DNA of 64,000 bases from a virus. Position 1 is the stretch's first letter; each line of letters opens with the position of its first letter. Shown here piece after piece: positions 24,825 through 59,853 of the stretch. The notes below the pieces were generated by a model, which did no database searches, was not told the DNA's origin, and was given only the letters and a program-made list of their open reading frames with translations. The position numbers were made by a program, and so were the translations under genes. The stretch is taken from the IMG/VR virus record IMGVR_UViG_3300036652_000269, positions 25,279-89,278 of that record; one strand, 5' to 3'.

Positions 24825-25433
24825 TTAGCTGGTGGGCTGATCGGTGGGCTGGCTGGCCGAGTCCGTGCTGACCGTCATCGGGGCAGCGGTGTCGTTGCCG
24901 GTGGCCGTAGTGGTGCTGATCTGAACACCCGGTGTGGTGTCGCTAGTCGGTGCACTGTCCGCTACCGCCACCGGGTCGCCGGCCACCGTGGTGTCCGCCG
25001 GAGTGCTGGCGTCCGTGGTGCTGGTGGTTGTCGGATCGACAGTCGGGGTCGCTGTGCCGGTCGTGTCGGTCGTGGTGGCGTCAGCCGGGGGTGCAGCCGG
25101 GGCAGCCTGCGGGAGAACGTTGTTCAGTGCCACCAGGTCGTTGTTGACCGCCGACGATGCTGCGCTGATCTGAGTCTGAAGGCTGGCGATGGTGGCCTGG
25201 TCCGCTGCGTCCGCCTGGGTCAGCTGGGACACCTGGGCCTGAAGGCTGTTCACCGAGCCCATCAGACTGACAACCTTGCCGACAACGGCGTCCAGCTGGG
25301 TCAGTTCGTCGGACAGTGCGTTGTTCTGGGTCATGAGTGCTTCTCCGATTTCGTCTACGCGCCGGTATAGCGCGATCAGGATGTCGCGGTCCGACAGTTC
25401 ATGCACTGGCAAGACCGCATGGTGTTCGCCCAC
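24825..25433 (-). CDS. Coiled-coil protein with Thr/Asp-rich tail
   Basis: Heptad region followed by low-complexity tail. Confidence 0.55.
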   Translation of the reverse strand: MGEHHAVLPVHELSDRDILIALYRRVDEIGEALMTQNNALSDELTQLDAVVGKVVSLMGSVNSLQAQVSQLTQADAADQATIASLQTQISAASSAVNNDLVALNNVLPQAAPAAPPADATTTDTTGTATPTVDPTTTSTTDASTPADTTVAGDPVAVADSAPTSDTTPGVQISTTTATGNDTAAPMTVSTDSASQPTDQPTS

Positions 25434-41078: not shown

Positions 41079-41795
41079 TTACGGTGCGATGGAGCCGTGC
41101 TTGCGGAACAGTTCACGGGTGATCGGCATGATGTTGGCCCACTGTGATTCCATCTTCTGGGCCACTCGCTCGATTTCCCACATCGGGAACGACTTGAAGC
41201 TGCTGTCGTCGTGCTTGGTACGCAGCGACAGAAAGTTCATCAAGGACCGTGCGTTGCAGGTCACGTACATTGACGAGTAGATGTACACCGGCAACACACC
41301 GCGAGACACTTCCTTGGCAATCCCAGCCGCCAGCAGTTCTTCGTATGCACTGTAGGTGTCTTCGAAGTGGCCTTTCATTGTGTCAAGGAGTTGTTCATAC
41401 TGTTCGTGTGTACCTTCCACATAGTTGTAGTGGCCAGGCTTGCCGACCTGCACCAGTGGGCGAACTGGCGGCGGCACGTAGAACATCGGTTCCAACTGCA
41501 TGTAGCGACCGCTGGCTTCGTTGTATGAAAACCCTATCCTGTGTCGCTGGAACTCGCGGAAGACGGCGATGGGTGCCGACACGAAGAAGGTGAAGGCGTT
41601 GTGTTCGAAGGGGCTACCGTGCCGGTTCCGCATCAGGAAGTCGAGGAACTTCTCTGTCTCTTCATTGGTGTAGTTCCTGGTAGCCGTAGCTAGCTGGCCC
41701 AGGGTGCTGACCTTCGCGGCATCGACCACCGCTTCGTCGTTGCCCATGAACCGGATCAGTTCAACTTTCAGTTCACTAGTCAGTTTGACGGGCAT
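41079..41795 (-). CDS. thyX: FAD-dependent thymidylate synthase
   Basis: HGSPFEH, REFQRHR...SYNEASGRY, E.SR.VLP, NARSL.NF..LR, WEI. Confidence 0.95.
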   Translation of the reverse strand: MPVKLTSELKVELIRFMGNDEAVVDAAKVSTLGQLATATRNYTNEETEKFLDFLMRNRHGSPFEHNAFTFFVSAPIAVFREFQRHRIGFSYNEASGRYMQLEPMFYVPPPVRPLVQVGKPGHYNYVEGTHEQYEQLLDTMKGHFEDTYSAYEELLAAGIAKEVSRGVLPVYIYSSMYVTCNARSLMNFLSLRTKHDDSSFKSFPMWEIERVAQKMESQWANIMPITRELFRKHGSIAP

Positions 41796-42087
41796 CAAAA
41801 ACTTCTCCTTTGGTTGGTGGGTCAACGTAAGTCACCTTGTCCAGCCGTATCGCCAGCTGGATCGGTGTGGTTTCATAGCGGTCGAAGAACCCTCGGCAGA
41901 TAGCGTTGTCACCCTGCAAAGTGTCGTGGCAGATCAACGCACTGTCTGCTTGCAAGTTGGCAGCTATGAGATTCTTCAGCCTGCCGGGCGTCAACTGCAT
42001 CAGATTGCCGGGTCGGAAGACACACGTGCTGCACTGTTCGGACAGCACGTGCACCCGTCCGTCCCGGAAGGCATTGTGTCGGGGCAT
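41776..42087 (-). CDS. Cys-rich hypothetical protein
   Basis: CSTCVFR...ICH...ICRGF. Confidence 0.55.
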   Translation of the reverse strand: MPRHNAFRDGRVHVLSEQCSTCVFRPGNLMQLTPGRLKNLIAANLQADSALICHDTLQGDNAICRGFFDRYETTPIQLAIRLDKVTYVDPPTKGEVFDARQTD

Positions 42088-42442: not shown

Positions 42443-42484
42443 AAACAAAACAGCGGGGCCGAGTCCGAAGACCCGACCCCGCTG
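42443..42484 (-). terminator. Rho-independent terminator
   Basis: CAGCGGGG..CCCCGCTG stem followed by TTTTGTTT on the minus strand. Confidence 0.75.
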
Positions 42485-43148
42485 CCCGAAGGGACTACCA
42501 ACCAGGGACACACATGCGATGCCGATGGTAGGCAGGCGTTCCGCAGACCGTCAAGCGGTGCAGTCGTCACACACCCAGTTCATGCGCCCACGGTACATTT
42601 TGATCTGTGCACTTGACACCGGCACGTCATTCATGCACACCACACATTCGACGGTGTGGTCCTTGGTCTTCTTCACCGCTGTCCTTCCTTGCGAGTGTGG
42701 ATGTGGATGCCGCAACGGTGTGTTCGGTGACTGCCTTGTAGGACACACAGGTCGGTGCAGAAGTCACAGAATCGAGTGCACACCGGCTTGTCACGATGAC
42801 AAAGCTGCCCGCAGTAGCAGTGCCCGATCATGCCGTCCTTGATACCGCAGTGTGGTCCACATTGGTCAGTCAGTCGCGTTAGTTCTGGTTTCATTCAGAT
42901 ACCCTTCGAAGTCCTTTGCTGTCTGGATGACAGTTTCACGTCCGGATGGTTTGGCACTTGCGGATAGACAAGCTAGACCGTGATGGATGACGGCTGCGAA
43001 CAGTGCCCAGACCCTGGTGGGGACCTCGACGGTGGGTCGGGCGGGTGATGGTGCCATGGTGGTGCCTTCCTGACCTGCGTAGGACGCCCGTAGCGGGCTT
43101 GAAGGGGTTCCGGGCTTGTCAGGGGCTTGGGAACGGCCCCGGTGGCTT

Positions 43149-43550
43149 CTAGGACCGTCTGAGGGCTTCGGCCAGGCTGCCGATGACGCCCTTGTGGTTG
43201 AAGAAGATGATCGACCCAGGTATCTGAACGACAACTCCGATCAGCCCAGGCATCGTCGCACGGATGTCGTGCTTGGACGGCAGGGGCGAATGGAAGCTGC
43301 AATGGGTGTGGGCGTACCCGACGATGCGGGGTACTTCATCGACCCCGATGGTGTCGAGAAGGTCTTCCTTGGTGATCTGGTAGTGGTTCTGTGGATCAGG
43401 GTGACTGTTGTGCACCCGAACTATCTCTTCGATAAACCTACGCTGCCCGATGACCCGGCCCAGCATGACGCCACAGTGTTCCTGCTTGTCGTCCCGAACT
43501 AGGTCCATCAGGTGATTGATGTTGACGCGGATGTTGTGTAGCCCCGGCAC
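43149..43550 (-). CDS. JAB/MPN (Mov34) metalloprotease
   Basis: E(HCG)...N...IVGYAHTH-x8-S-x2-D. Confidence 0.8.
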   Translation of the reverse strand: MPGLHNIRVNINHLMDLVRDDKQEHCGVMLGRVIGQRRFIEEIVRVHNSHPDPQNHYQITKEDLLDTIGVDEVPRIVGYAHTHCSFHSPLPSKHDIRATMPGLIGVVVQIPGSIIFFNHKGVIGSLAEALRRS

Positions 43551-43571
43551 GACTTTCTCCTAGATATGAAG

Positions 43572-43608
43572 AAAGGCACCGCCCCCGAAGAAGGTGGGGA
43601 CGATGCCT
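43572..43608 (-). terminator. Stem-loop after Arg-rich protein gene
   Basis: AGGCA.CG.CCC...GGGGACGATGCCT, followed by TTTCTT on the minus strand. Confidence 0.55.
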
Positions 43609-43625
43609 GACTTCAGTGCGGTTGG

Positions 43626-43967
43626 TTAGCGACCCGTGGCCCGACGTGCGGCGGTGGGGCGACGAGCAACCCGCGTGGCAGCCGCAGCCGGGGCCGGGGC
43701 AGCACGACGGGCGGCACCGGGACGACGGGCGACCCGACCGCCACCACCCAGGGCGGCAAGGGCACGCTGACCGGCAGGGGTGGAACGCTCCCGCTCCATC
43801 TGCGCCAGCTGACGACGGCCACCGGAACTGATGTTGCCGGAACGCGCGTCCGAGATCAGCGTGCGCCGGATGCGCTCGTTGCCGGTCGCACCGGAACCGG
43901 GGCGCGAACCCTGGCTGACGATGTTGGGGAGTTCCGCAGCAAGTGCGGTCGCAATGGCATTGGCCAT
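43626..43967 (-). CDS. Small Arg/Ala/Gly-rich basic protein
   Basis: 113 aa from MANAIA; GAAAGGA RBS; 21 Arg, no Lys, no aromatic residues. Confidence 0.7.
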   Translation of the reverse strand: MANAIATALAAELPNIVSQGSRPGSGATGNERIRRTLISDARSGNISSGGRRQLAQMERERSTPAGQRALAALGGGGRVARRPGAARRAAPAPAAAATRVARRPTAARRATGR

Positions 43968-44084
43968 TGGTAACACATCCTTTCGTGACATGGCACCGGG
44001 CCACCATCGCTGGTGTTCTCCCCAGGGCCGGGTTGGCAACCACCATCGTGTCATACCCGATACCAGACTGCCTACCAATCCCGG

Positions 44085-44966
44085 CTACGGGCGTGCCGTC
44101 AGTCGGTCCGACAACCCGAGCAGGCAGTTCATCACCGTGTAGTTGGCCAGTACCGATGTGATACCCGCTGGGTCACGGCTGGGCAGCACTTCGGTCAGCG
44201 ATATGCCACTGATGCCGATCTGTGCGCAGAGGTTCTGCACCCATGGCAGCACCTGTCGTGGGTTCAGTCCCATCGGTTCGGGGGCACCGGTACCGGGTGC
44301 ATAGGCCGGGTCGAACACATCGATGTCGATGGCCAGCCATGTCGATTGCTCGTGGCCGGTCAACTTGTCGTGAATGTCAGCCACCCAGTCAGTGACGTGG
44401 ATGGCATTGTGCCCAACGCTTGCATAGTGTTTCCACACCTTGGCTGTCGGTCCGAAACAGCGATGCCCGATCAGCCATGCTTCCGACACAGTGCCCACGT
44501 CCAGAGCGAACCGCATCCACGAACCGTGGTCGTAGTCTTCGTCGGTTTCCGGTTCCCAGATATCTGAATGAGCATCCAGGTGCACCACCCTGACCTGTTC
44601 ACCCGCCTGGCTTGCCAAGGCGTGCAGGCATGGGTAGGTGATGCTGTCGTCCCCACCCAGCACGATGGGCACGGCACCCAACGCGAGTGTTTCGTACACC
44701 CGGTCGAACACCTGATCGGTTGCCTTCTTGTGACTGGACCTGACATCGGTGTCGCCTAAGTCGCACACTTTCACTGTGACACTGCGTTTGGACGACGCAT
44801 CGTAAATCTCGTTGTGCGGCCAGTTCGCTGCTGATCGGATGGCCTGTGGTGCGTCACGCTGTCCACCGTGCCCCGTGCTGCCACCGTCATACGGCACACC
44901 CAACACCGCGACCTGATACCCGCGTGCCGTCGATACGTACGGGTATCCGTTGTAGGTCAGTTCCAT
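44085..44966 (-). CDS. Arginase/agmatinase-family ureohydrolase
   Basis: GVPYD, DLGD, GGDDS, DAHSD, HGS, DIDVFDP..APGTG.PEP.G, TE; start MELTY with AGGAGA RBS. Confidence 0.9.
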   Translation of the reverse strand: MELTYNGYPYVSTARGYQVAVLGVPYDGGSTGHGGQRDAPQAIRSAANWPHNEIYDASSKRSVTVKVCDLGDTDVRSSHKKATDQVFDRVYETLALGAVPIVLGGDDSITYPCLHALASQAGEQVRVVHLDAHSDIWEPETDEDYDHGSWMRFALDVGTVSEAWLIGHRCFGPTAKVWKHYASVGHNAIHVTDWVADIHDKLTGHEQSTWLAIDIDVFDPAYAPGTGAPEPMGLNPRQVLPWVQNLCAQIGISGISLTEVLPSRDPAGITSVLANYTVMNCLLGLSDRLTARP

Positions 44967-44987
44967 CTTTCTCCTAGACATAGACAA

Positions 44988-45019
44988 GGGCAGGGCCATG
45001 TCGCACCATGGCCCTGCCC
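44988..45019. terminator. Perfect 13-bp stem-loop between DUF4417 and ureohydrolase genes
   Basis: GGGCAGGGCCATG-TCGCAC-CATGGCCCTGCCC. Confidence 0.55.
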
Positions 45020-45033
45020 AGCTTGGGTGTCCG

Positions 45034-47583
45034 TCAGATAGTAGTTTTGCGTCCGCGTGCCTTTGCCTTCTCGGCCAGCTTTTCAAGTCGTGAGTTCACG
45101 ATCCACATCTTGGCACCGTGGAAGTCCCAGGCCCCATCATCGATCAGCTTGCGTGCCTGCTTGCCGATGTACAGCAGGATGCCGTCCGGTGTCAGCGTGT
45201 CGATGACCTTCTGCACCTGAGCGATGTAGTGGTCGATGCCACCGGTCACCGTGTCGGGGTCGATGGTCTGCATCTGCATAGCGATCATCGGCACGTGCTT
45301 GGGCAGGGTGGCCAAGACCTGCTTCTCCAACCACTCCATGTCGCCGTCGATCCAGGTGATGTTCGGGATCACCTTCAGCCCGGCTTCTTGGAAGTAGCGA
45401 CCGACCCACCGGGACCGCATCAGGTTCCACAGCGCATCGACCTTCATCATGAAAGTCTCTTGGCTGTAGTCCGGCGTCAGGATGTGCTTGATGCCGCTGT
45501 TGATGACCTTGGCCGTGTAGCGGTCGGGGTAGTAGTACCAGTTCTCGAAGTAGTCATCGAAGCAGTTTCCCGTGACGTAGACCTTGCCGTTACGGCGAGC
45601 CACGAATGTTCCGTAATCGGTAGTTGGGCACCACACCATGCCGTCGTAGTCAACTGTCGGTTCATTAGTCGCTGAGCTGAAGTTGCTGGTGCCATGCCAA
45701 CCACCTCCACCACGCTTATCGCGGAAGCCACCATGAAAGTCCAGCCCGTTTTGCCCGCTGACAGTCTTCCGCTTCAAGACTGTGGCTTGGTAGATCGGCG
45801 TATCGGTGTATGTGTACCCATTGATTGAAGTGTCTTGCTGGCGAACCCTAGTCGTAGTAGCTCGGCCAGCCATTGCACACAACGCAACGAACGCATCAGT
45901 TGCGGCTTTGTCTTTTTGGAAGAAGTGGTCGAACGTCTTGCTGCGCGTCCCATCTGCGTCAATCATTGTTTCAATCAGCAGGTCCCGCTGGTAGGGCGAC
46001 AACGAAGCCATGAACTCGTTGGTCATGGTCCTGCTAGGTGCGACCTGATGCAGTGCTTCAGCAATGGTTGACTTGATCCTGAATGATCGACAGTTGGTCC
46101 CGCTGTTTGATTCACTCCAAGCAGCGCCTACTAGCTTCAGCGATTGGCGGATACGTCGTTCGCCGTCCGTACCAAGTTTCTGGCTGATGGTCACATACTT
46201 GGTGCTTCCGCCGTCCCGCTTCCGCTCGTAAGTGGAGTAATGGCCTTCGGTGACAGCCCATCCGGCCAGTTCGACAAATGCGTCCGTGTAGACCGATGGG
46301 GAATCTTCTTGCATCGCGTCACCCATCAACAGCAAGATGTCTCGCTTTGTCAGGTAGTCTACAGTTTTGATGGATTGCACACCGGTAGCTGCGTGCCGCG
46401 TCAAGAACTTATGACCTGGCGTTACCAATGCATCAATGCCAGTGCCGGTAAGGTAGTGCATCTTTCCGGTATAGCGGAACCGATTGAACCGGCGAACCGG
46501 AGACCACTTCATCTGGTGGTCGTCAGGGTCCATGCACAGCACGATGTCATCGAGGGTCACCTCGCTACCGTGAAGCCAGCCCCGCTTCGACAAGATTTCG
46601 GTCTCATCGTCAACGCAGTAGAACGACATGATGACCTTCGACACGTCCTTCATGCCGGATGTCGAATCGATACCCCAGTTGTACAGCCACCACTGGTCGT
46701 CGTTGGGCCAGTCCTTGCACGCGCTTCCGGCCCACGAGTCGAGTTCGTCAGGTTCGCACGGCATGTCATCAGGGGTGCACAGCAGTTCGGGGATCAAGCG
46801 GGGGATACCCCAGTACCCAACGGTGTCAAAGTGACACTGGTCCGCAGGCTTCAGGGTCAGCATCCCTTGGAGTTCGCCAGGTGCACCCAGCAACTGGTCG
46901 GGTTCGGTCGGTGCCTTACCGTCCGCATCGTCGTCAACTGCCTTGCCACCACGGTGCACGACGGCAGGCATGTCGTCTTCGTCCAGCATGTCGTCGGTCT
47001 CTTCACCGAGTGGAGCACCGGCGAACGTCTTGGCCTTTCGTTCCCGGTCTTCCATCTGCTGCCTGATTTCCATCGCACGTTGTGCGTCAGACAGTGTGGT
47101 ATCGACTATCGACTGGACACTTTCCAGGATGCCGTCGAGTTCCAGGTTCGAGTAACCGGTACCCACCAGGTCGGGCAGGTCAGACAACAGGTCAGCCAGG
47201 ATTTCGTAATCATATGAGCCGTCTTCGGCTGTTTTATTGTCTGCGACGTTGATGCGGGTTGCCGCAACGTCGTCCACGTCCACGAACGAGACCATGATCT
47301 CGTCCCACTGTTCCTTGCGGGCAGCCAGCCAAGTGTGGTTACCTGCCAAGATTTCGTTCTTGCGGCCAGTCTTCGTCCCGACGTTGACGATGATGGCCCG
47401 GTACTGCCCGTTGCGTCGGAGCGACTCGGCTATCTTGTCGATGTTGCCGATCTTCGGGTTCTTGTGGAACCCGGTCAGTTCACCGATCTGAACCAGCTTC
47501 GTTTCTAGGATGATCTGACGCTTCGGCTCTGGCTTTTCGACAGCCTTCTTCATCGCCCGCTTCGTCGGCGTGGGTGTCGTCAT
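45034..47583 (-). CDS. ParB/Srx-like domain + DUF4417-like domain protein, intein-containing
   Basis: N-terminal NP...I.ESL...G....I.V...ILAGNHT..AA...ADN (ParB-like). After splicing: SFYCFDDYFENW...LTPDYS...WN..RSRWVG.YFQ..G..VIPNITW (DUF4417 pattern). Confidence 0.8.
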   Translation of the reverse strand: MTTPTPTKRAMKKAVEKPEPKRQIILETKLVQIGELTGFHKNPKIGNIDKIAESLRRNGQYRAIIVNVGTKTGRKNEILAGNHTWLAARKEQWDEIMVSFVDVDDVAATRINVADNKTAEDGSYDYEILADLLSDLPDLVGTGYSNLELDGILESVQSIVDTTLSDAQRAMEIRQQMEDRERKAKTFAGAPLGEETDDMLDEDDMPAVVHRGGKAVDDDADGKAPTEPDQLLGAPGELQGMLTLKPADQCHFDTVGYWGIPRLIPELLCTPDDMPCEPDELDSWAGSACKDWPNDDQWWLYNWGIDSTSGMKDVSKVIMSFYCVDDETEILSKRGWLHGSEVTLDDIVLCMDPDDHQMKWSPVRRFNRFRYTGKMHYLTGTGIDALVTPGHKFLTRHAATGVQSIKTVDYLTKRDILLLMGDAMQEDSPSVYTDAFVELAGWAVTEGHYSTYERKRDGGSTKYVTISQKLGTDGERRIRQSLKLVGAAWSESNSGTNCRSFRIKSTIAEALHQVAPSRTMTNEFMASLSPYQRDLLIETMIDADGTRSKTFDHFFQKDKAATDAFVALCAMAGRATTTRVRQQDTSINGYTYTDTPIYQATVLKRKTVSGQNGLDFHGGFRDKRGGGGWHGTSNFSSATNEPTVDYDGMVWCPTTDYGTFVARRNGKVYVTGNCFDDYFENWYYYPDRYTAKVINSGIKHILTPDYSQETFMMKVDALWNLMRSRWVGRYFQEAGLKVIPNITWIDGDMEWLEKQVLATLPKHVPMIAMQMQTIDPDTVTGGIDHYIAQVQKVIDTLTPDGILLYIGKQARKLIDDGAWDFHGAKMWIVNSRLEKLAEKAKARGRKTTI
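45565..46617 (-). mobile_element. Intein (351 aa) with LAGLIDADG-type endonuclease
   Basis: Starts CVDDETEILSKRGW; VTPGH block B; LAGWAVTEG and MIDADG; ends VYVTGN|C. Confidence 0.9.
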
Positions 47584-48155
47584 GGTCGGGTAATCCGCCT
47601 TAGTGGTCGTCGGACAGGTGTGGCCATCCTACGATGACCAGTGGTCTGTTGTTCGTCACGTTGATGAAGCTCTTCGACGTGCAACTTTCGATTCCACATC
47701 TGCAAGCCGTACTGCACGATGCACGCCGAGTCCATCAGGTCGGGGTCACTGTTTGACATGTCCCATGCCTTGGGCCAGTGCTGGTGGACGAAGCGTGCTA
47801 TCTCAGGTTTCTTGGCGGCACCGTTGCCGACGACCTGCTTCTTCCAGGTCGAACTGTTCACCATTTCCACCCGCTCGGCTCCTGCCACCCCAGCAGCTGC
47901 GATCAACGCACCGCTGACCTGGCCCAGCAACAGGGTGGATGCCTTGGACCCCCAGACGATGGGGGCTTCGATGAACACCCACGGATCGGAGTACGGCTCG
48001 ACCAGTGCCTTCACCCATTCGTGCACCAACACTAGTCGGCGCACCTTGTCGGTCGGCAGCTTGCGTGTCTCCATGTAGGACGAATCATGTTCTGACAAGA
48101 CCGTTGCCGCCAACTTCTTACTGGACGGGTCGATCCCCACGATGGTCGGTCGCAT
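47580..48155 (-). CDS. ruvC: RuvC-like Holliday junction resolvase
   Basis: IVGIDPS, VFIE, WKK.V.G.G.A.K, D..DS. Confidence 0.85.
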   Translation of the reverse strand: MRPTIVGIDPSSKKLAATVLSEHDSSYMETRKLPTDKVRRLVLVHEWVKALVEPYSDPWVFIEAPIVWGSKASTLLLGQVSGALIAAAGVAGAERVEMVNSSTWKKQVVGNGAAKKPEIARFVHQHWPKAWDMSNSDPDLMDSACIVQYGLQMWNRKLHVEELHQRDEQQTTGHRRMATPVRRPLRRITRP

Positions 48156-50151: not shown

Positions 50152-50457
50152 CTAGGTCCTTTCGATATGCACGACGCAGCGGTAGCCGGGGAACTCGATG
50201 ACGAGTACCGGTTCCTTGCCTTGTCGCACCGCTACGTCATACAACGTGGCGATGTAGCTACGGTTCATGGCGAACGTCTTTGCTGCCGTCTTTGCTTCTA
50301 TCACTTCGTCTTCGCTGCTGCCGTCGAAACGGATGCGACCCGATCCACTACCAGGGTGAGGTCTCCCACCACGGGACTTGACGATGCGCGTTTCCTGGAT
50401 GCGCCCGTTCTCCTGCGGGGTGGGCTTGCGCCACCGTGGTTCGTTGAAGTCCACCAT
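50152..50457 (-). CDS. Hjc-like PD-(D/E)xK resolvase
   Basis: E......GG...PGSGS....DG......IEAKT. Confidence 0.7.
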   Translation of the reverse strand: MVDFNEPRWRKPTPQENGRIQETRIVKSRGGRPHPGSGSGRIRFDGSSEDEVIEAKTAAKTFAMNRSYIATLYDVAVRQGKEPVLVIEFPGYRCVVHIERT

Positions 50458-52319
50458 CAGGCAGTAGCCCGCCTACGCATAACCCGCTTGGCCGGGGCCA
50501 CGGTGATCGGCTTTGGCTTGATGGCTGCCTTCAACGACGGCGGGATGTAGAGGCCGTGCTCTTGTCTGATCGACACTTCCAAGGCGTTAGCAAGGTCTTG
50601 GTCCGTTGCCACCCGTGCCTTGAAGTTGTCCTTGCCCTGCACTTTCAGGGTGCCGAAGGTCCATGACGGACCGGACTGGGTGATGAGCCCGAGTTCTAGA
50701 CCCTGCGCGATCATGAACGCTGTCAAGTCGATAGTGCCGGTGTTCAGGTCCCACATGAAGTGGATTTCCCGCAACGGCTTGGACAACTTCGACTTCTCCA
50801 AGAGCATCCTGTACTTCTGTGCGGTGCGTACCTTGGTGTCGATCCACTTTTCGCCATCGTAAGACTTTTCATTGGTAGACACCCAGCCGGTCTTCTTGAT
50901 GTTGAACCGGTACGAGGCGTAGTACCCCATTGCCTTGCCGCCGGTCGGTTGTTCAGTTGGGCCGAAGGTGACCCCGATGTTCTGCCGCAGTTGGTTGATG
51001 AACATACACGCGGTCCGTGCATTGGCGGTTGTCATCTTGCGAGACCCGCGGGACATCAGGCTGGCCAGTCGTCCCGGTTGTGCGGTGTCGGACATCGACT
51101 TGTCTGCATCCGCCTTGGGCATGGTGGCCGCGATACTGTCGAACACCAGCAGGTCAAGCCCGTTGCGGATCAGCATTTCCGCTGCGTCGATTGCCGCCTC
51201 TCCTGTTTCGGGGCGAGCCTGGATCAGATCGTCCAACCTGACCCCCACCGATTCAGCCCACTGGGGATCGAAGGCATGTTCGGTGTCTACGATGGCAGCG
51301 ATGCCACCTGCCTGTTGCACTTCACGAATGGCGTTCAGCCCGATGTAAGATTTTAGAGTGCTGTTGTGAGTGAACATCCCATCCGCGATTAGCGTCTGCG
51401 TGCTGGTGCCTATCGCGATGACAGGCTGGTCACCAACGTAACGAATGCTAGTCACCCTGGCCGTTCCGTCAAAGGTGGCGTTCGGGCCACGCGATGCGAT
51501 ACCCACACCGTCATACCAGAGTTTGGATGCCAGTCGTTCTGGCCTGACCTGGCCCATAAACCGCATCCGTTCACGCATTCCGCCTAGCAACGCTAACCGC
51601 TGTACGTCGGCCGAACCTTGGGGCTGGACTATGTATTTGAAACCTAGTTGGTCCAAGCACATCCGCACCTTGTCGAGCACAAGTCCGGGGTTCTGGCCGA
51701 ACTGAATACGTGCATGGCTGTCCACCCACCCTTCGCCGTCATAGACACCAGACAGGTAGGCGGCTTCGTACTGGTAGCTAGGCGCACCCCATGGCTTGCC
51801 GAACCATAGAATCTGGTCACCTGCACCAAGGTCGCAGGTCTTCTTCCACTCTGGCTTGTTCTGATTGTTGCGAACCAACCACAAGTGATTGGTGCTAGCT
51901 ACCGTTGTGGTGCCCTGGTCTGTCTTGATTTCGAACGACGGCAGCTGCTTGTGCCTTGTACGTTCGACAGTTGCACGACGGTACTTGCGAATCTGCCCCC
52001 TGCCAGGTTCGGGTTCTTCATCAAACCCGATGATCTCATCACCGACCCGCAGGCTTCCCATTGGTTGCCAGACGTAATCGGCGGTAAGGACCAAGGTTTC
52101 GGGTGCCAGGCAGAAGTCGCCTGTCACTTCGACAAACCTACCCCTTGGTAGTCCGCCTTGGCACAGCACGTCCACGGGGAGTAAGCCGGTCGGTAGATAT
52201 TTCACCACCAACGATTCGTGACTTGCTGGTACTAGAACGGTACTGCCCATCCGCCTGTTTATCTCGGCCATTAGCTCTTGCGATCTTGTCACGGCGGCGG
52301 GCTTCTTCTTGGGCGGCAA
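50457..52319 (-). CDS. recA: RecA/UvsX-like recombinase, intein-containing
   Basis: GGLPRGR.VE..G, VDTEHAFDP.WA..VGV, VFDS, FINQLR..IGV.FG..E...GG.A..YYAS.R. Confidence 0.92.
   Translation of the reverse strand: MPPKKKPAAVTRSQELMAEINRRMGSTVLVPASHESLVVKYLPTGLLPVDVLCQGGLPRGRFVEVTGDFCLAPETLVLTADYVWQPMGSLRVGDEIIGFDEEPEPGRGQIRKYRRATVERTRHKQLPSFEIKTDQGTTTVASTNHLWLVRNNQNKPEWKKTCDLGAGDQILWFGKPWGAPSYQYEAAYLSGVYDGEGWVDSHARIQFGQNPGLVLDKVRMCLDQLGFKYIVQPQGSADVQRLALLGGMRERMRFMGQVRPERLASKLWYDGVGIASRGPNATFDGTARVTSIRYVGDQPVIAIGTSTQTLIADGMFTHNSTLKSYIGLNAIREVQQAGGIAAIVDTEHAFDPQWAESVGVRLDDLIQARPETGEAAIDAAEMLIRNGLDLLVFDSIAATMPKADADKSMSDTAQPGRLASLMSRGSRKMTTANARTACMFINQLRQNIGVTFGPTEQPTGGKAMGYYASYRFNIKKTGWVSTNEKSYDGEKWIDTKVRTAQKYRMLLEKSKLSKPLREIHFMWDLNTGTIDLTAFMIAQGLELGLITQSGPSWTFGTLKVQGKDNFKARVATDQDLANALEVSIRQEHGLYIPPSLKAAIKPKPITVAPAKRVMRRRATA
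51363..52112 (-). mobile_element. Intein (250 aa) in RecA P-loop
   Basis: GDF|CLAPETLVLTAD...STNH...YLSGVYDGEG...ADGMFTHN|STLKS. Confidence 0.9.
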
Positions 52320-57073: not shown

Positions 57074-58369
57074 CTAGCTTGCTGTCACTTCGACACCAGC
57101 TTGCCTAGTACCCCAGCCGTTCTTCAGACAGGTCACGATGCCCCAGACCCGAAGTGGCCGGAAGATGACCCAACCCCACACAATGATGAGTGGGCTGAGC
57201 AACCACACCCCGAACTTCTGCCAGAACGTTTCATCTGTCCGATGGACAATCAACGTCCGCAACGTAACACCGTAAGTGAGCAACGGGCTAACCAACAACG
57301 TCGGGATGATGAGCCGGTAGTCGTGGTGCGTAGTCGGCCAGATCACCAGCACGTCAGCAAACACTACTGTCGTGACGATGAACTGCACCCAGCTGATTAC
57401 CTCGAACCACAACGCGATACCGGTGGCGGGCAGATAGCGGTACCGCCAGATCGACCTGATGAACATCCCACGGCACCAACGGAGTTGCTGCCTGACGTGG
57501 TGCGACAACCCTTCCGGCCATGTGGTGAAGGCCACTGCATTGTGCTGTTGGACAGTCTTACCTGCCAACAACGCGAACATGGTCAGCAGTGAGTCATCGC
57601 TGTACTTCACCGGACGACCACCAAAGGTTTCACCTAGATAGGCGTCTTCTGCGTTCCGTACCACATCCGCCTTGTACAGCGCGAACGGTCCAGAGTTCAC
57701 CAACACGTTGTTTGCCACCGACAACGCAGCACGGCTTGTCAGCTGCCACGTAGTGATGACCAGGTCGATGGTGCGAACCAAGATGCCGTGGTGTTTGTTC
57801 AGTGCCAGCACCAGTCCAGCTACCGACGTGACTTCAGGATCGATGAATGGCTTCAACCCGTTCTCGACTGCCTTCGGGTGTAGCAGGGTGTCGCTGTCGA
57901 TGGTGATAAAGATGTCGGCCATGTCACCACGGAACGTCTGCATCTGGGCGTGCCGCTTGCCCGCGTTGTCTTGTCGAGCCCACTCGAACCCAAGACTGTG
58001 GGCGTATGCGATTACGTCCGTGTAATCGACGGACGACCCATCATCGACAACCTGCACCCGATCCACACGGTGAGTCTGATCGGCAATAGACCGCAGCACC
58101 TTCATCAGCAGGGCGGGGTCTTCGTTATACACCGGGACGTTCAGGGTCACCTTCATCGCGCCAACGAGGGAATGTTGTCTGGCTGTTTTCAGTTCGACAG
58201 GGACATCGAACCAAGCTGCGACCAGCTGCCACGCCAGGAACAGGAACACACCAGCGAAGATGATGGTGAACGGGTAGACACTCTCCCGACGTACCAGGTG
58301 CGATACCGACAAGTAGTGGTGGTATGTCCACGCGACGATACCCACCAAGGTCAGGATGAGCGGAAGCAT
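57074..58369 (-). CDS. Processive GT2 glycosyltransferase (hyaluronan/chitin synthase, NodC-like)
   Basis: VPVYNED, VDDGS, GKR, DSDT, SGP, (S)DD..LT, QQLRW; N- and C-terminal TMs. Confidence 0.9.
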   Translation of the reverse strand: MLPLILTLVGIVAWTYHHYLSVSHLVRRESVYPFTIIFAGVFLFLAWQLVAAWFDVPVELKTARQHSLVGAMKVTLNVPVYNEDPALLMKVLRSIADQTHRVDRVQVVDDGSSVDYTDVIAYAHSLGFEWARQDNAGKRHAQMQTFRGDMADIFITIDSDTLLHPKAVENGLKPFIDPEVTSVAGLVLALNKHHGILVRTIDLVITTWQLTSRAALSVANNVLVNSGPFALYKADVVRNAEDAYLGETFGGRPVKYSDDSLLTMFALLAGKTVQQHNAVAFTTWPEGLSHHVRQQLRWCRGMFIRSIWRYRYLPATGIALWFEVISWVQFIVTTVVFADVLVIWPTTHHDYRLIIPTLLVSPLLTYGVTLRTLIVHRTDETFWQKFGVWLLSPLIIVWGWVIFRPLRVWGIVTCLKNGWGTRQAGVEVTAS

Positions 58370-58407
58370 GGTTCGCTTCCGCCCACCCACCTTCACGTCA
58401 GGCGTAA

Positions 58408-58572
58408 TCACTTGTCCGTGGCCTTCTTGTTGCGTCGGTAGCCGATACGCACGGCAACAAAACCGACCACGATGGTTGCAGCTGCGAGACCAGCTAACCA
58501 CAGTTGATTGATGACCAGGCCACCGATACTCAGCGAGGCCAATCCGGTGTAGGGGAGCTTTCCGTACGGCAT
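58408..58572 (-). CDS. 54-aa LPXTG-type sorting-signal mini-protein
   Basis: MPYGKLPYTG + hydrophobic stretch + RIGYRRNKK; GAAGGG RBS. Confidence 0.6.
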   Translation of the reverse strand: MPYGKLPYTGLASLSIGGLVINQLWLAGLAAATIVVGFVAVRIGYRRNKKATDK

Positions 58573-58770
58573 GTGTCTTGCCCTTCTGTGTTGTTGTGCT
58601 GTGTTGGTGTTGACCACCCCGAGCGCGCAGCATCCAGCCACGGTAGTTGTCAGGGTGATAGTCGAATCCGATGTCCCTGATATCGGATAGACAGCGCGAC
58701 TGCCGGTATCGAAACCGGACCGGGCTAGGAGTGAAGTGCCCGGTACTTCCTGTCAGTCGCTACGGGTGAA

Positions 58771-59259: not shown

Positions 59260-59853
59260 CTACTCTTCTTCGCCGCCGAGCAGCAGGTCGATCAGCGCGG
59301 GCTTCTTGACCAGCTTGGGATAGGACAAACCCCATTCGTCGGCCAGGGCCTTCAGGTCGGCAAGGGACATTTCTTGAAGCTGCTCTTCGGTGTACTCTTC
59401 CTCGCCCTCGTCGCCTTCCTCTACCTCGGCCTCTTCCTCGGCCTCTTCCTCGGCCTCGTCGCCCTCTTCCTCTTCGCCTTCTTCGAACTCGACGTTGAGG
59501 ATGTTCTCGATCAGGGCGTCTTTGTCAGCCGCCGCGATGTCTTCGGGTTCGAACTCCAACCCCTTGGCGATCTTGCGAAGGGCCACCAGGGTCATCCCCT
59601 GAAGTTCGGCTTCGCGGGCTTCGTACTCGTCGCCACCCTCTTCGGCCTCTTCTTCGGCCTCTTCTTCCGCCTCTTCCTCATCCTCGGGCTCGGCCTCGGG
59701 AGCGGCCTTCTTGGCCGCGGTCTTCTTGGCCGGTGCGGGTGCCGCCTTCTTGGCAGCCGGTGCTGCTGTTGCGGTGTCGTCACTGCCGCCCAACGCCACT
59801 GCGATCAGTTCAGCGATAGCGGTAGCAAGCGCGTCAACATCGATCTTCGCCAC
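59260..59853 (-). CDS. Acidic protein with two Rho-N/HEH-like helical modules
   Basis: LQGMTLVALRKIAK...KDALIE and LQEMSLADLKALA...KKPALID. Confidence 0.6.
   Translation of the reverse strand: MAKIDVDALATAIAELIAVALGGSDDTATAAPAAKKAAPAPAKKTAAKKAAPEAEPEDEEEAEEEAEEEAEEGGDEYEAREAELQGMTLVALRKIAKGLEFEPEDIAAADKDALIENILNVEFEEGEEEEGDEAEEEAEEEAEVEEGDEGEEEYTEEQLQEMSLADLKALADEWGLSYPKLVKKPALIDLLLGGEEE

Follow-up and report, generated by a model that had tools for sequence, protein, structure and literature searches.

In the Dpd system, insertion of preQ0 into DNA by the TGT-like protein DpdA (TGT, tRNA-guanine transglycosylase) depends on hydrolysis of ATP by the ParB-like protein DpdB (PMC10164549), and in cluster B mycobacteriophages a ParB-like gene adjoins that of DpdA (PMC6392294). 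In type IV cyclic oligonucleotide-based antiphage signaling systems (CBASS), Cap10 binds the start of CdnD, M(G/S)G(G/S)GG, which carries 7-amido-7-deazaguanine (bioRxiv 10.1101/2025.04.06.647259). A survey of 2025 described the fusion of ParB with the domain DUF4417 as frequent in phages and of unknown function. DUF4417 is among the commonest unexplained phage domains, present also in the much-studied cluster A mycobacteriophages, and neither its fold nor its function was given in the searchable literature. Here we describe a ParB-DUF4417 gene and the three genes which follow it in an uncultured phage (IMG/VR record IMGVR_UViG_3300036652_000269). The window, i.e., the whole stretch of DNA that was analyzed, comprises 64,000 nucleotides (positions 25,279 to 89,278 of the record) and belongs to a virus record of 89,278 bp rated complete. 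The coding strand is the minus strand for every gene of the window; positions are those of the window, and the features lie on this strand, unless a relative is named.

The region from 43149 to 47583 encodes a ParB-DUF4417 protein, an arginase-family hydrolase, a small polycationic protein and a JAB metallopeptidase. By analogy with described systems, it would appear to be a module of DUF4417 and a glycine-tagged polycation, in which the JAB enzyme removes a leader from the polycation and the arginase is an accessory; we estimate the probability of this reading at about 40%, and all steps beyond the linkage of the genes are our inference. A description of the chemistry of such a gene set was not found in the literature searched. 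The original prediction, made from the sequence alone, had reported four consecutive genes of the same orientation between ruvC and thyX. This observation was confirmed, since all four are on the minus strand and their open reading frames (ORFs) are real; the interpretation which went with it, a pathway for modification of DNA, was supported in part.

Glycine-tagged proteins beside DUF4417

The polycationic, histone-H1-like protein of the window (43626–43967) consists of 113 amino acids, with 21 Arg, no Lys and 27 Ala. Arg is thus the sole basic residue type (of Lys and Arg), as had been noted before; with Lys making up 45% of Lys plus Arg in the other proteins of the phage, 21 Arg out of 21 would have P ~4e-6 for independent draws, which repeated residues are not. 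A leader and a Gly/Ser run (residues 1–28) are followed by three helices (29–73), a GGGG stretch (74–77) and an Arg/Ala tail (78–113), so that the glycine runs (residues 19–29 and 74–77) are internal and lie behind the leader. The predicted model, with a mean confidence (predicted local distance difference test, pLDDT) of 59, had three short helices, with disorder in the leader and in the tail. A reading as ubiquitin-like protein was rejected, since this model of pLDDT 59 had no beta-grasp and no strand. Codon statistics were indecisive for the frame of the gene, which was fixed by the gene call (on three contigs, exactly this ORF is called as a gene) and by the relatives. A tblastn search with the protein gave no matches, as expected for a sequence of low complexity, and no other glycine-tagged ORFs were found in the window.

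The IMG/VR relatives L007, L008, L009 and L017 were retrieved with an alignment of ParB-DUF4417. A small, basic protein of low complexity came after ParB-DUF4417 in every relative examined, with a glycine run in most of them. In the window phage and seven relatives (L007, L008, L009, L017, GMA6, the Hanem group and Cantare), whose basic proteins are alike in position and architecture, the JAB gene follows that of the basic protein. The proteins of these JAB-bearing phages are composed of a non-basic leader (hydrophobic and acidic, often ending in G-A-G), a glycine run and a basic tail. Among phages without the JAB gene, the protein begins at the glycine run in L006, L014, L015 and L018, likewise in L012 and L013 through a likely internal start, and the basic protein of DalanDe has no leader. 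The link between a basic protein bearing Gly-Gly and the JAB enzyme, which had been suspected earlier, thus holds across one clade.

A second setting was found in L012–L018, where the pair of DUF4417 and glycine-run protein is located upstream of the large terminase gene (at about 1 kb) and not beside RuvC. That the glycine-run basic protein trails ParB-DUF4417 in two genomic settings favors the reading as a module. Spot checks beyond this set of relatives gave mixed support for the pairing with a glycine tag: gp2 of Che12, which comes after the DUF4417 protein gp1, opens with a Gly-rich run, and orf29 of MM1, after ParB-DUF4417, contains GGGRGA; in gp111 of LeBron the tag was absent at the annotated start. 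The same orf29 of Streptococcus phage MM1 (L093, 2249–2995) showed by eye a JAB-like motif, H-x-H...S-x-x-D, with no match in Pfam; its true start may be downstream of the annotated one. In Bendigovirus phages (L004, 7118–8023; L005, 7619–8521), a conserved Cys-rich protein of some 285–300 amino acids without Pfam match is found together with the basic protein and JAB, and it also accompanies the module in L006 (2840–3694); in a blastp comparison the neighboring ORFs of the window matched none of its copies, so that a homologue beside the module was not seen here.

The proposed co-occurrence of all four genes in other genomes was found in one respect and failed in another. The diverged L007, a contig of 91.8 kb, has the identical order of RuvC, ParB-DUF4417, arginase-family gene, basic protein and JAB. 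In the phage collection, DUF4417 was present in 503 phage records (chiefly phages of Mycobacterium, Streptococcus and Gordonia), this type of JAB in about 15, namely 13 records of the Bendigovirus group (DalanDe not included) and Cantare, besides L007, L008, L009 and L017 from IMG/VR, and an arginase in no actinophage. The four genes are therefore not one obligatory unit, since DUF4417 is widespread, JAB confined to one clade and the arginase rarer still. With the same order in L007 and such a layered distribution, the four-gene set is a sub-lineage variant, which recurs, of a wider module.

The enzymes of the module

The ParB-DUF4417 gene (45034–47583) codes for a precursor of 849 amino acids, in which the fusion reported earlier was borne out. 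DUF4417 was matched by PF14386 with 60.3 bits (cut-off 28.9), in the C-extein only, because an intein splits the domain. ParB was identified by PHROG 723 (E 1e-46) and by matches of the family profile to Noc/ParB structures at 1e-6; the match to ParB_N (PF02195) was 21.7 bits, under the cut-off of 26.3. By alignment with the intein-less homologues P0214–P0218, the N-extein (46618–47583, residues 1–322) would contain the ParB-like domain and, after an acidic linker, the opening strands of the DUF4417 barrel, and the C-extein (45034–45564, residues 674–849 and stop), with 47–57% identity to the same homologues, the remainder of a TGT-like triosephosphate isomerase (TIM) barrel. The insert of 351 amino acids between them (45565–46617, residues 323–673) is judged from its residues to be an intein, with C323 as Cys1, N673 as terminal Asn and C674 as the +1 Cys. 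Its insertion point is two residues ahead of the sole invariant Asp of DUF4417 (motif F-D-x-Y-F); five orthologues of 466–489 amino acids are without the insert, and in other phages tblastn located the same insert in genes for portal, TerL, ThyX and methylase proteins. With P0215 as query, metagenome contigs yielded no matches.

The earlier suggestion that DUF4417 might adopt a barrel like that of TGT or DpdA could be followed up with the homologous domain of L006, the closest relative in IMG/VR, using an alignment of 18 sequences from intein-less homologues. The resulting model (pLDDT 91; predicted template modeling score, pTM, 0.89) had eight strands alternating with helices. In a structural search of 48,161 chains, ranks 1–4 were all taken by the TGT superfamily: ArcTGT 1iq8 with Z 10.9 (root mean square deviation 4.9, 215 residues aligned), DpdA 7ui4 with Z 9.9 (201 aligned), QTRT2 6fv5 with 9.5 and bacterial TGT 3unt with 8.9; the next barrel family followed at Z 8.7 and lower, and Cap10 at 8.0. 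In a second-look structural search, QTRT1 was first (Z 10.5) and aldolases were near at 9.3. Three phage queuine tRNA-ribosyltransferases were among weak viral matches. TGT and DpdA are thus, in line with the prediction, the closest folds by Z score, with a small margin, and the combination of ParB with a TGT-like domain is that of DpdB and DpdA, a pair for which exchange of DNA bases is proven.

The active sites of TIM-barrel enzymes are found at the C-terminal ends of the strands. According to alignment and model, the conserved residues of DUF4417 gather at these strand ends; they comprise one invariant Asp (in F-D-x-Y-F, after strand 3) and conserved Q, E, Y and R, as placed by alignment. 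In the sequence alignments of the family, no conserved Cys columns were seen that might correspond to the zinc site of TGT and DpdA. Since the fold match is without support from sequence, we regard the modeled domain as "TGT-like in shape" and not as a member of the TGT family.

The JAB gene (43149–43550, GTG start) encodes a small, stand-alone JAB/JAMM metallopeptidase of 133 amino acids. Its match to Prok-JAB (PF14464) was above the cut-off (27.9 versus 25 bits), and the JAMM residues E24, H81, H83, S92 and D95 (E...HxH...S..D) are present, without variation among 30 homologues; the presence of a JAB peptidase gene with intact catalytic residues is in agreement with the prediction. A total of 83 homologues was found among 1.8 billion representatives; the best NCBIfam match was desampylase, with 34.9 bits below the cut-off of 130. 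JAB alignments used for scans of contigs were too divergent or yielded only two cellular loci. Weak E-values in PHROGs pointed to a "tail protein"; this label was rejected because the gene is one of the replication block and resembles tail-assembly proteins in their JAB portion.

Stem-loops had been reported between the genes; significant hairpins were obtained in two of the four intergenic regions, those of the other two being not significant. One is a GC-rich hairpin of 13 bp between the ParB-DUF4417 and arginase genes (44988–45019), recorded in the terminator scan, with dG -37.5 kcal/mol and z -4.8 (0 of 200 shuffles were as stable); the other, also of 13 bp and followed by a U-rich tract, comes after the basic-protein gene (43574–43608; dG -32.6, z -4.4). 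In L007 a hairpin of 15 bp occupies the equivalent place between the basic-protein gene and JAB. Such a terminator-like hairpin ahead of JAB would suit a substrate made in abundance and a protease needed in catalytic amounts. Directly 5' of the arginase ATG is a leader of 12 nucleotides with a Shine-Dalgarno sequence, TCTAGGAGAAAG (44967–44978), of which a second, exactly matching copy (43553–43564) is found 2 nt ahead of the JAB GTG start; there are just these two exact copies in 64 kb, with 0.07 expected. Ahead of both copies are a 13-bp hairpin (GGCA...TGCC) and a spacer rich in U. This occurrence of leader and hairpin solely ahead of arginase and JAB suggests a translational or processing control element common to both genes.

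For the arginase-family gene (44085–44966, 293 amino acids), the match to PF00491 (E 2.6e-62, 211 bits) substantiates the predicted hydrolase, an arginase/agmatinase-family ureohydrolase. The TTG start of an ORF of 333 amino acids was dropped for the ATG after the hairpin, and the public gene call P0001 is exactly the 293-amino acid protein. The score for the agmatinase equivalog TIGR01230 was 131.7 bits with a cut-off of 174.3, and the protein was also under the cut-offs for HutG and arginase. The motifs DAHSD, DIDVFDP and TEV are intact and the guanidinium-binding Glu is present. Of the six metal ligands expected (H, D, H, D, D, D), five are canonical; the first His is replaced by Asp (D107, GGDDS for GGDHS), which could bind metal. 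A His as first ligand was found in 117 of the 120 best homologues, and Asp in this position only in the window protein and in P0002, the closest homologue, which is encoded on a contig of 90.6 kb.

In a tree of 75 homologues, the window enzyme and P0002 were sisters (96 in the Shimodaira-Hasegawa-like approximate likelihood ratio test, SH-aLRT) and were joined by the enzyme of L007 (94), all three on long branches. An arginase was thus found in three contigs of about 90 kb, those of the window phage, P0002 and L007; the enzyme of L007 has the canonical His, occupies the identical slot and is 31% identical to that of the window. Phage-encoded arginases were rare in the phage collection, with five unrelated records, none from an actinophage, and scans of viral contigs with single proteins (arginase, JAB and P0002) yielded zero matches. 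In L008, an ORF for an HNH-type endonuclease (1841–2428) is located between ParB-DUF4417 and the basic protein, which is the arginase slot of the window and of L007. A special tie between the Arg-only protein and the ureohydrolase, as had been proposed, did not hold: in L007, whose arginase has the canonical His, the basic protein beside it contains 27 Lys and 14 Arg, so that the link is not conserved.

Explanations for the gene neighborhood

According to the reading which we favor, the JAB enzyme would cut the leader of the basic pro-protein at the glycine run and so expose a Gly-rich N-terminus, which would resemble the heads of the DUF4417-neighbor proteins in JAB-less phages. DUF4417 would bind and chemically handle this N-terminus, by analogy with Cap10 on CdnD, and would act on or near DNA, to which both the ParB domain and the polycation are expected to bind. 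The arginase-family enzyme may be a lineage-specific accessory, most likely a small-molecule guanidino hydrolase (agmatinase-like, forming putrescine and urea), a step which we propose with less confidence; its putrescine could perhaps be a second DNA counter-ion. In the window phage, arginase and JAB would be under the common control element of hairpin and leader.

Several points weigh against this reading. The margin of TGT over aldolases and other TIM barrels was just 1–2 Z, and the resemblance is at the level of fold only: Foldseek against the PDB gave weak, generic TIM-barrel matches, with no TGT in the top 50; the hidden Markov model for TGT, PF01702, was without a match in the 89-kb genome at E<=10, where 14 of 14 control genomes match; and HHalign against a mini-profile of DpdA from mycobacteriophage Rosebush gave a probability of 0.1%. 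A QueC-like partner (PF06508) had zero matches in the complete 89-kb genome, and the chemistry, not being simply transferable from Cap9/Cap10, must therefore differ from it. The position of the nucleotide motif GERR (GxxRxxA) of ParB holds A-G-N-H-T, invariant in all homologues aligned, which makes binding of nucleoside triphosphates by the ParB-like domain appear doubtful. The substrates of canonical JAMM enzymes have a folded ubiquitin-like domain, after whose Gly-Gly the cut is made, and the basic protein is without such a fold. The phages from which the correlation of JAB with the leader is drawn are related, and independent losses among them are few. The arginase is absent from most relatives, and the junction after ParB-DUF4417 also holds the HNH gene (L008) or other inserts (DalanDe), and may therefore be an insertion hot spot.

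The next most probable explanation, which we consider rather unlikely, is that the genes are unrelated neighbors. Within the recombination block, ParB-DUF4417 would then bind DNA or be a nuclease; the basic protein would bind DNA as ordinary histone-like proteins do, JAB would act on a target of its own, and the arginase would be a metabolic moron. Their adjacency would reflect a gene order conserved in one phage lineage. The block of DnaE, RecA, Cas4-like, RuvC and ParB-DUF4417 is in fact syntenic in all relatives, most of the 503 DUF4417 records are without this JAB or arginase, and the inserts at the site after ParB-DUF4417 are varied. It would then be difficult to explain that the pairing of DUF4417 and glycine-run basic protein persists in the second setting near the terminase gene, that the leader is found only alongside JAB, that the arginase of L007 holds the same slot at 31% identity, and that arginase and JAB have a unique 12-nt leader in common.

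The original prediction had offered two models for a modification of DNA. In the one which stands closer to the favored reading, in its strong form, ParB-DUF4417 would be a protein-to-DNA transglycosylase, which covalently couples the JAB-freed N-terminal Gly of the polycation to DNA, directly or through a base inserted afterwards, so that the DNA would be decorated with a histone-like protein; the ureohydrolase would edit the adduct, a guanidino intermediate or the arginines of the protein. The evidence for the favored reading would apply here as well, and the Cap10 paper proposed a tagged protein poised for transfer to a target. An enzyme for conjugation to a nucleobase, of the QueC-like type, is not encoded (no match to PF06508), and we regard such a coupling as distinctly unlikely.

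In the other model, which appears improbable, DUF4417 would be a base-exchange enzyme installing a base derived from a polyamine or a guanidino compound, and the ureohydrolase would supply or trim the group. A TGT/DpdA-like fold joined to ParB, as in DpdA/DpdB, and the adjacent arginase in two phages would be in line with this; against it stands the absence of the arginase from nearly all DUF4417 phages, and the linked glycine-run proteins are left unexplained. Genes for QueC and a canonical TGT were not found in the genome, a search which did not extend to other genes for base synthesis or polyamine transfer. A dedicated pathway for polyamine-modified DNA is thus unlikely.

Very improbable, in our view, is a role of the JAB enzyme against host defense, in which it would mimic Cap3 or the JAB enzymes of Bil systems and strip ubiquitin-like or CD-NTase conjugates of the host, independent of its neighbors. 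The enzyme is minimal and stand-alone, has intact catalytic residues and gave desampylase as best NCBIfam match (below cut-off); its strict position after a leader-bearing basic protein in the window phage and seven relatives argues against such independence, and none of the similarity searches pointed to Cap3. Least probable of all would be a peptide arginase converting Arg of the Arg-only protein to ornithine, for which the adjacency of both genes within one hairpin-bounded unit, the Arg-only composition in the window phage and the altered metal site GGDD, common only to P0002, could be cited, since L007 has a canonical arginase beside its Lys-rich basic protein (27 Lys, 14 Arg) and the best solved relatives are all enzymes for small molecules.

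Phage lineage and comparison with described systems

The replication block of the window, in the order DnaE, RecA (with a likely intein), Cas4-like exonuclease, RuvC and ParB-DUF4417, is collinear with that of the Gordonia phages of the genus Bendigovirus (DalanDe, Hanem, GMA6) and of the Brevibacterium phage Cantare, with protein identities of 30–50%. From this, the phage is judged to be a distant, uncultured actinophage relative of the Bendigovirus phages and Cantare. Megablast of the region against phages gave zero matches. Among public runs, three soil metagenomes contained DNA of the phage and may be its source; no RNA run with it was listed.

The RuvC-like resolvase gene upstream (47580–48155; PF02075, E 5.4e-8) overlaps the start of ParB-DUF4417 by 4 nt. 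ParB-DUF4417 comes directly after RuvC in DalanDe, Hanem, GMA6, L006, L007 and L008; in Cantare an endonuclease gene intervenes. Downstream of the module are an ORF of 63 amino acids (42866–43057), which is kept in this place and has homologues in L009, L007 and L006, and a Cys-rich ORF of 73 amino acids with the motif LTDQCGPHCG (42673–42894), whose homologue of 64 amino acids in L017 is situated between ParB-DUF4417 and the basic protein. The latter ORF and a zinc-ribbon-like ORF of 65 amino acids are two small Cys-rich ORFs downstream of JAB (42551–42894). The block is closed by a strong, terminator-like hairpin of 18 pairs (42448–42487, terminator scan), and the gene for the ThyX thymidylate synthase follows at 41079–41825 (PF02511, E 6.4e-47).

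Some further observations were made in the surroundings. The RecA-like recombinase (50457–52319, 620 amino acids) has an apparent intein-like insert, which starts with C-L-A-P-E-T-L-V after the P-loop region; RecA of the relatives has about 340–390 amino acids, and together with ParB-DUF4417 there would be two intein-bearing genes inside 7 kb. The Cas4-like exonuclease of L007 (4581–6314) aligns as two pieces within an ORF of 577 amino acids, which suggests an insertion, possibly an intein. A protein of 197 amino acids with the N-terminal domain of the Rho termination factor (59260–59853; PF07498, E 3e-7) and a family-2 glycosyltransferase of 519 amino acids (57074–58633; PF00535, E 7e-16) are encoded in the window, the latter in the early/replication region.

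When compared with small-molecule ureohydrolases (agmatinase SpeB, the guanidine hydrolase GdmH 7ESR/7OI1, guanidinobutyrase and proclavaminate amidinohydrolase), among which are its closest solved relatives, the window enzyme has the PF00491 fold in common with them at about 30–35% identity; it differs in being phage-encoded within a replication block, in D107 as first ligand and in scores below every equivalog cut-off. With Mec+/CysO, HvJAMM1/SAMP and Cap3, the window JAB shares the motif E...HxH...S..D and a neighboring product with glycine runs; here the neighbor is without beta-grasp, and an E1- or E2-like gene was not seen among the annotated neighbors in the block.

In adenoviruses, the precursors of basic core proteins, pVII and pre-Mu, are trimmed by the viral protease adenain. 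The module of the window is likewise proposed to combine a DNA-condensing pro-protein with a virus-encoded protease, which would be a JAMM metalloprotease rather than a cysteine protease, in viruses from another domain of hosts; cleavage in the window phage is our inference.

The clade offers two handles on the wider DUF4417 question, a separate JAB enzyme that should create the reactive N-terminus and a rare phage ureohydrolase, and it has cultured relatives, namely the Gordonia phages GMA6 and Hanem and the Brevibacterium phage Cantare.

Like DpdA/DpdB of Salmonella Montevideo (PDB 7UI4), ParB-DUF4417 would have a barrel of TGT fold partnered on DNA with a protein of the ParB superfamily. 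In the window phage, both parts are in one chain, sequence similarity to TGT or DpdA is missing, a QueC-type gene for preQ0 was not found, GNHT stands in place of DGQQR or GERR as the ParB motif, and a glycine-run protein accompanies ParB-DUF4417, whereas Dpd is without one. Cap10/Cap9/CdnD (PDB 9NTN) provides the published example of a TGT-family barrel on the Gly-rich N-terminus of a partner, and Cap10 was among the structural matches of DUF4417. Different from that system are, besides the missing QueC-like match, the partner, which is a polycation and not a nucleotidyltransferase, the position of the tag behind a leader, the addition of a JAB peptidase, and the setting, a phage instead of host defense. 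The region is thus a richer variant, with leader, JAB and ureohydrolase, of an undescribed module of DUF4417 and tagged protein, whose nearest analogues are DpdA/DpdB and Cap10/CdnD.

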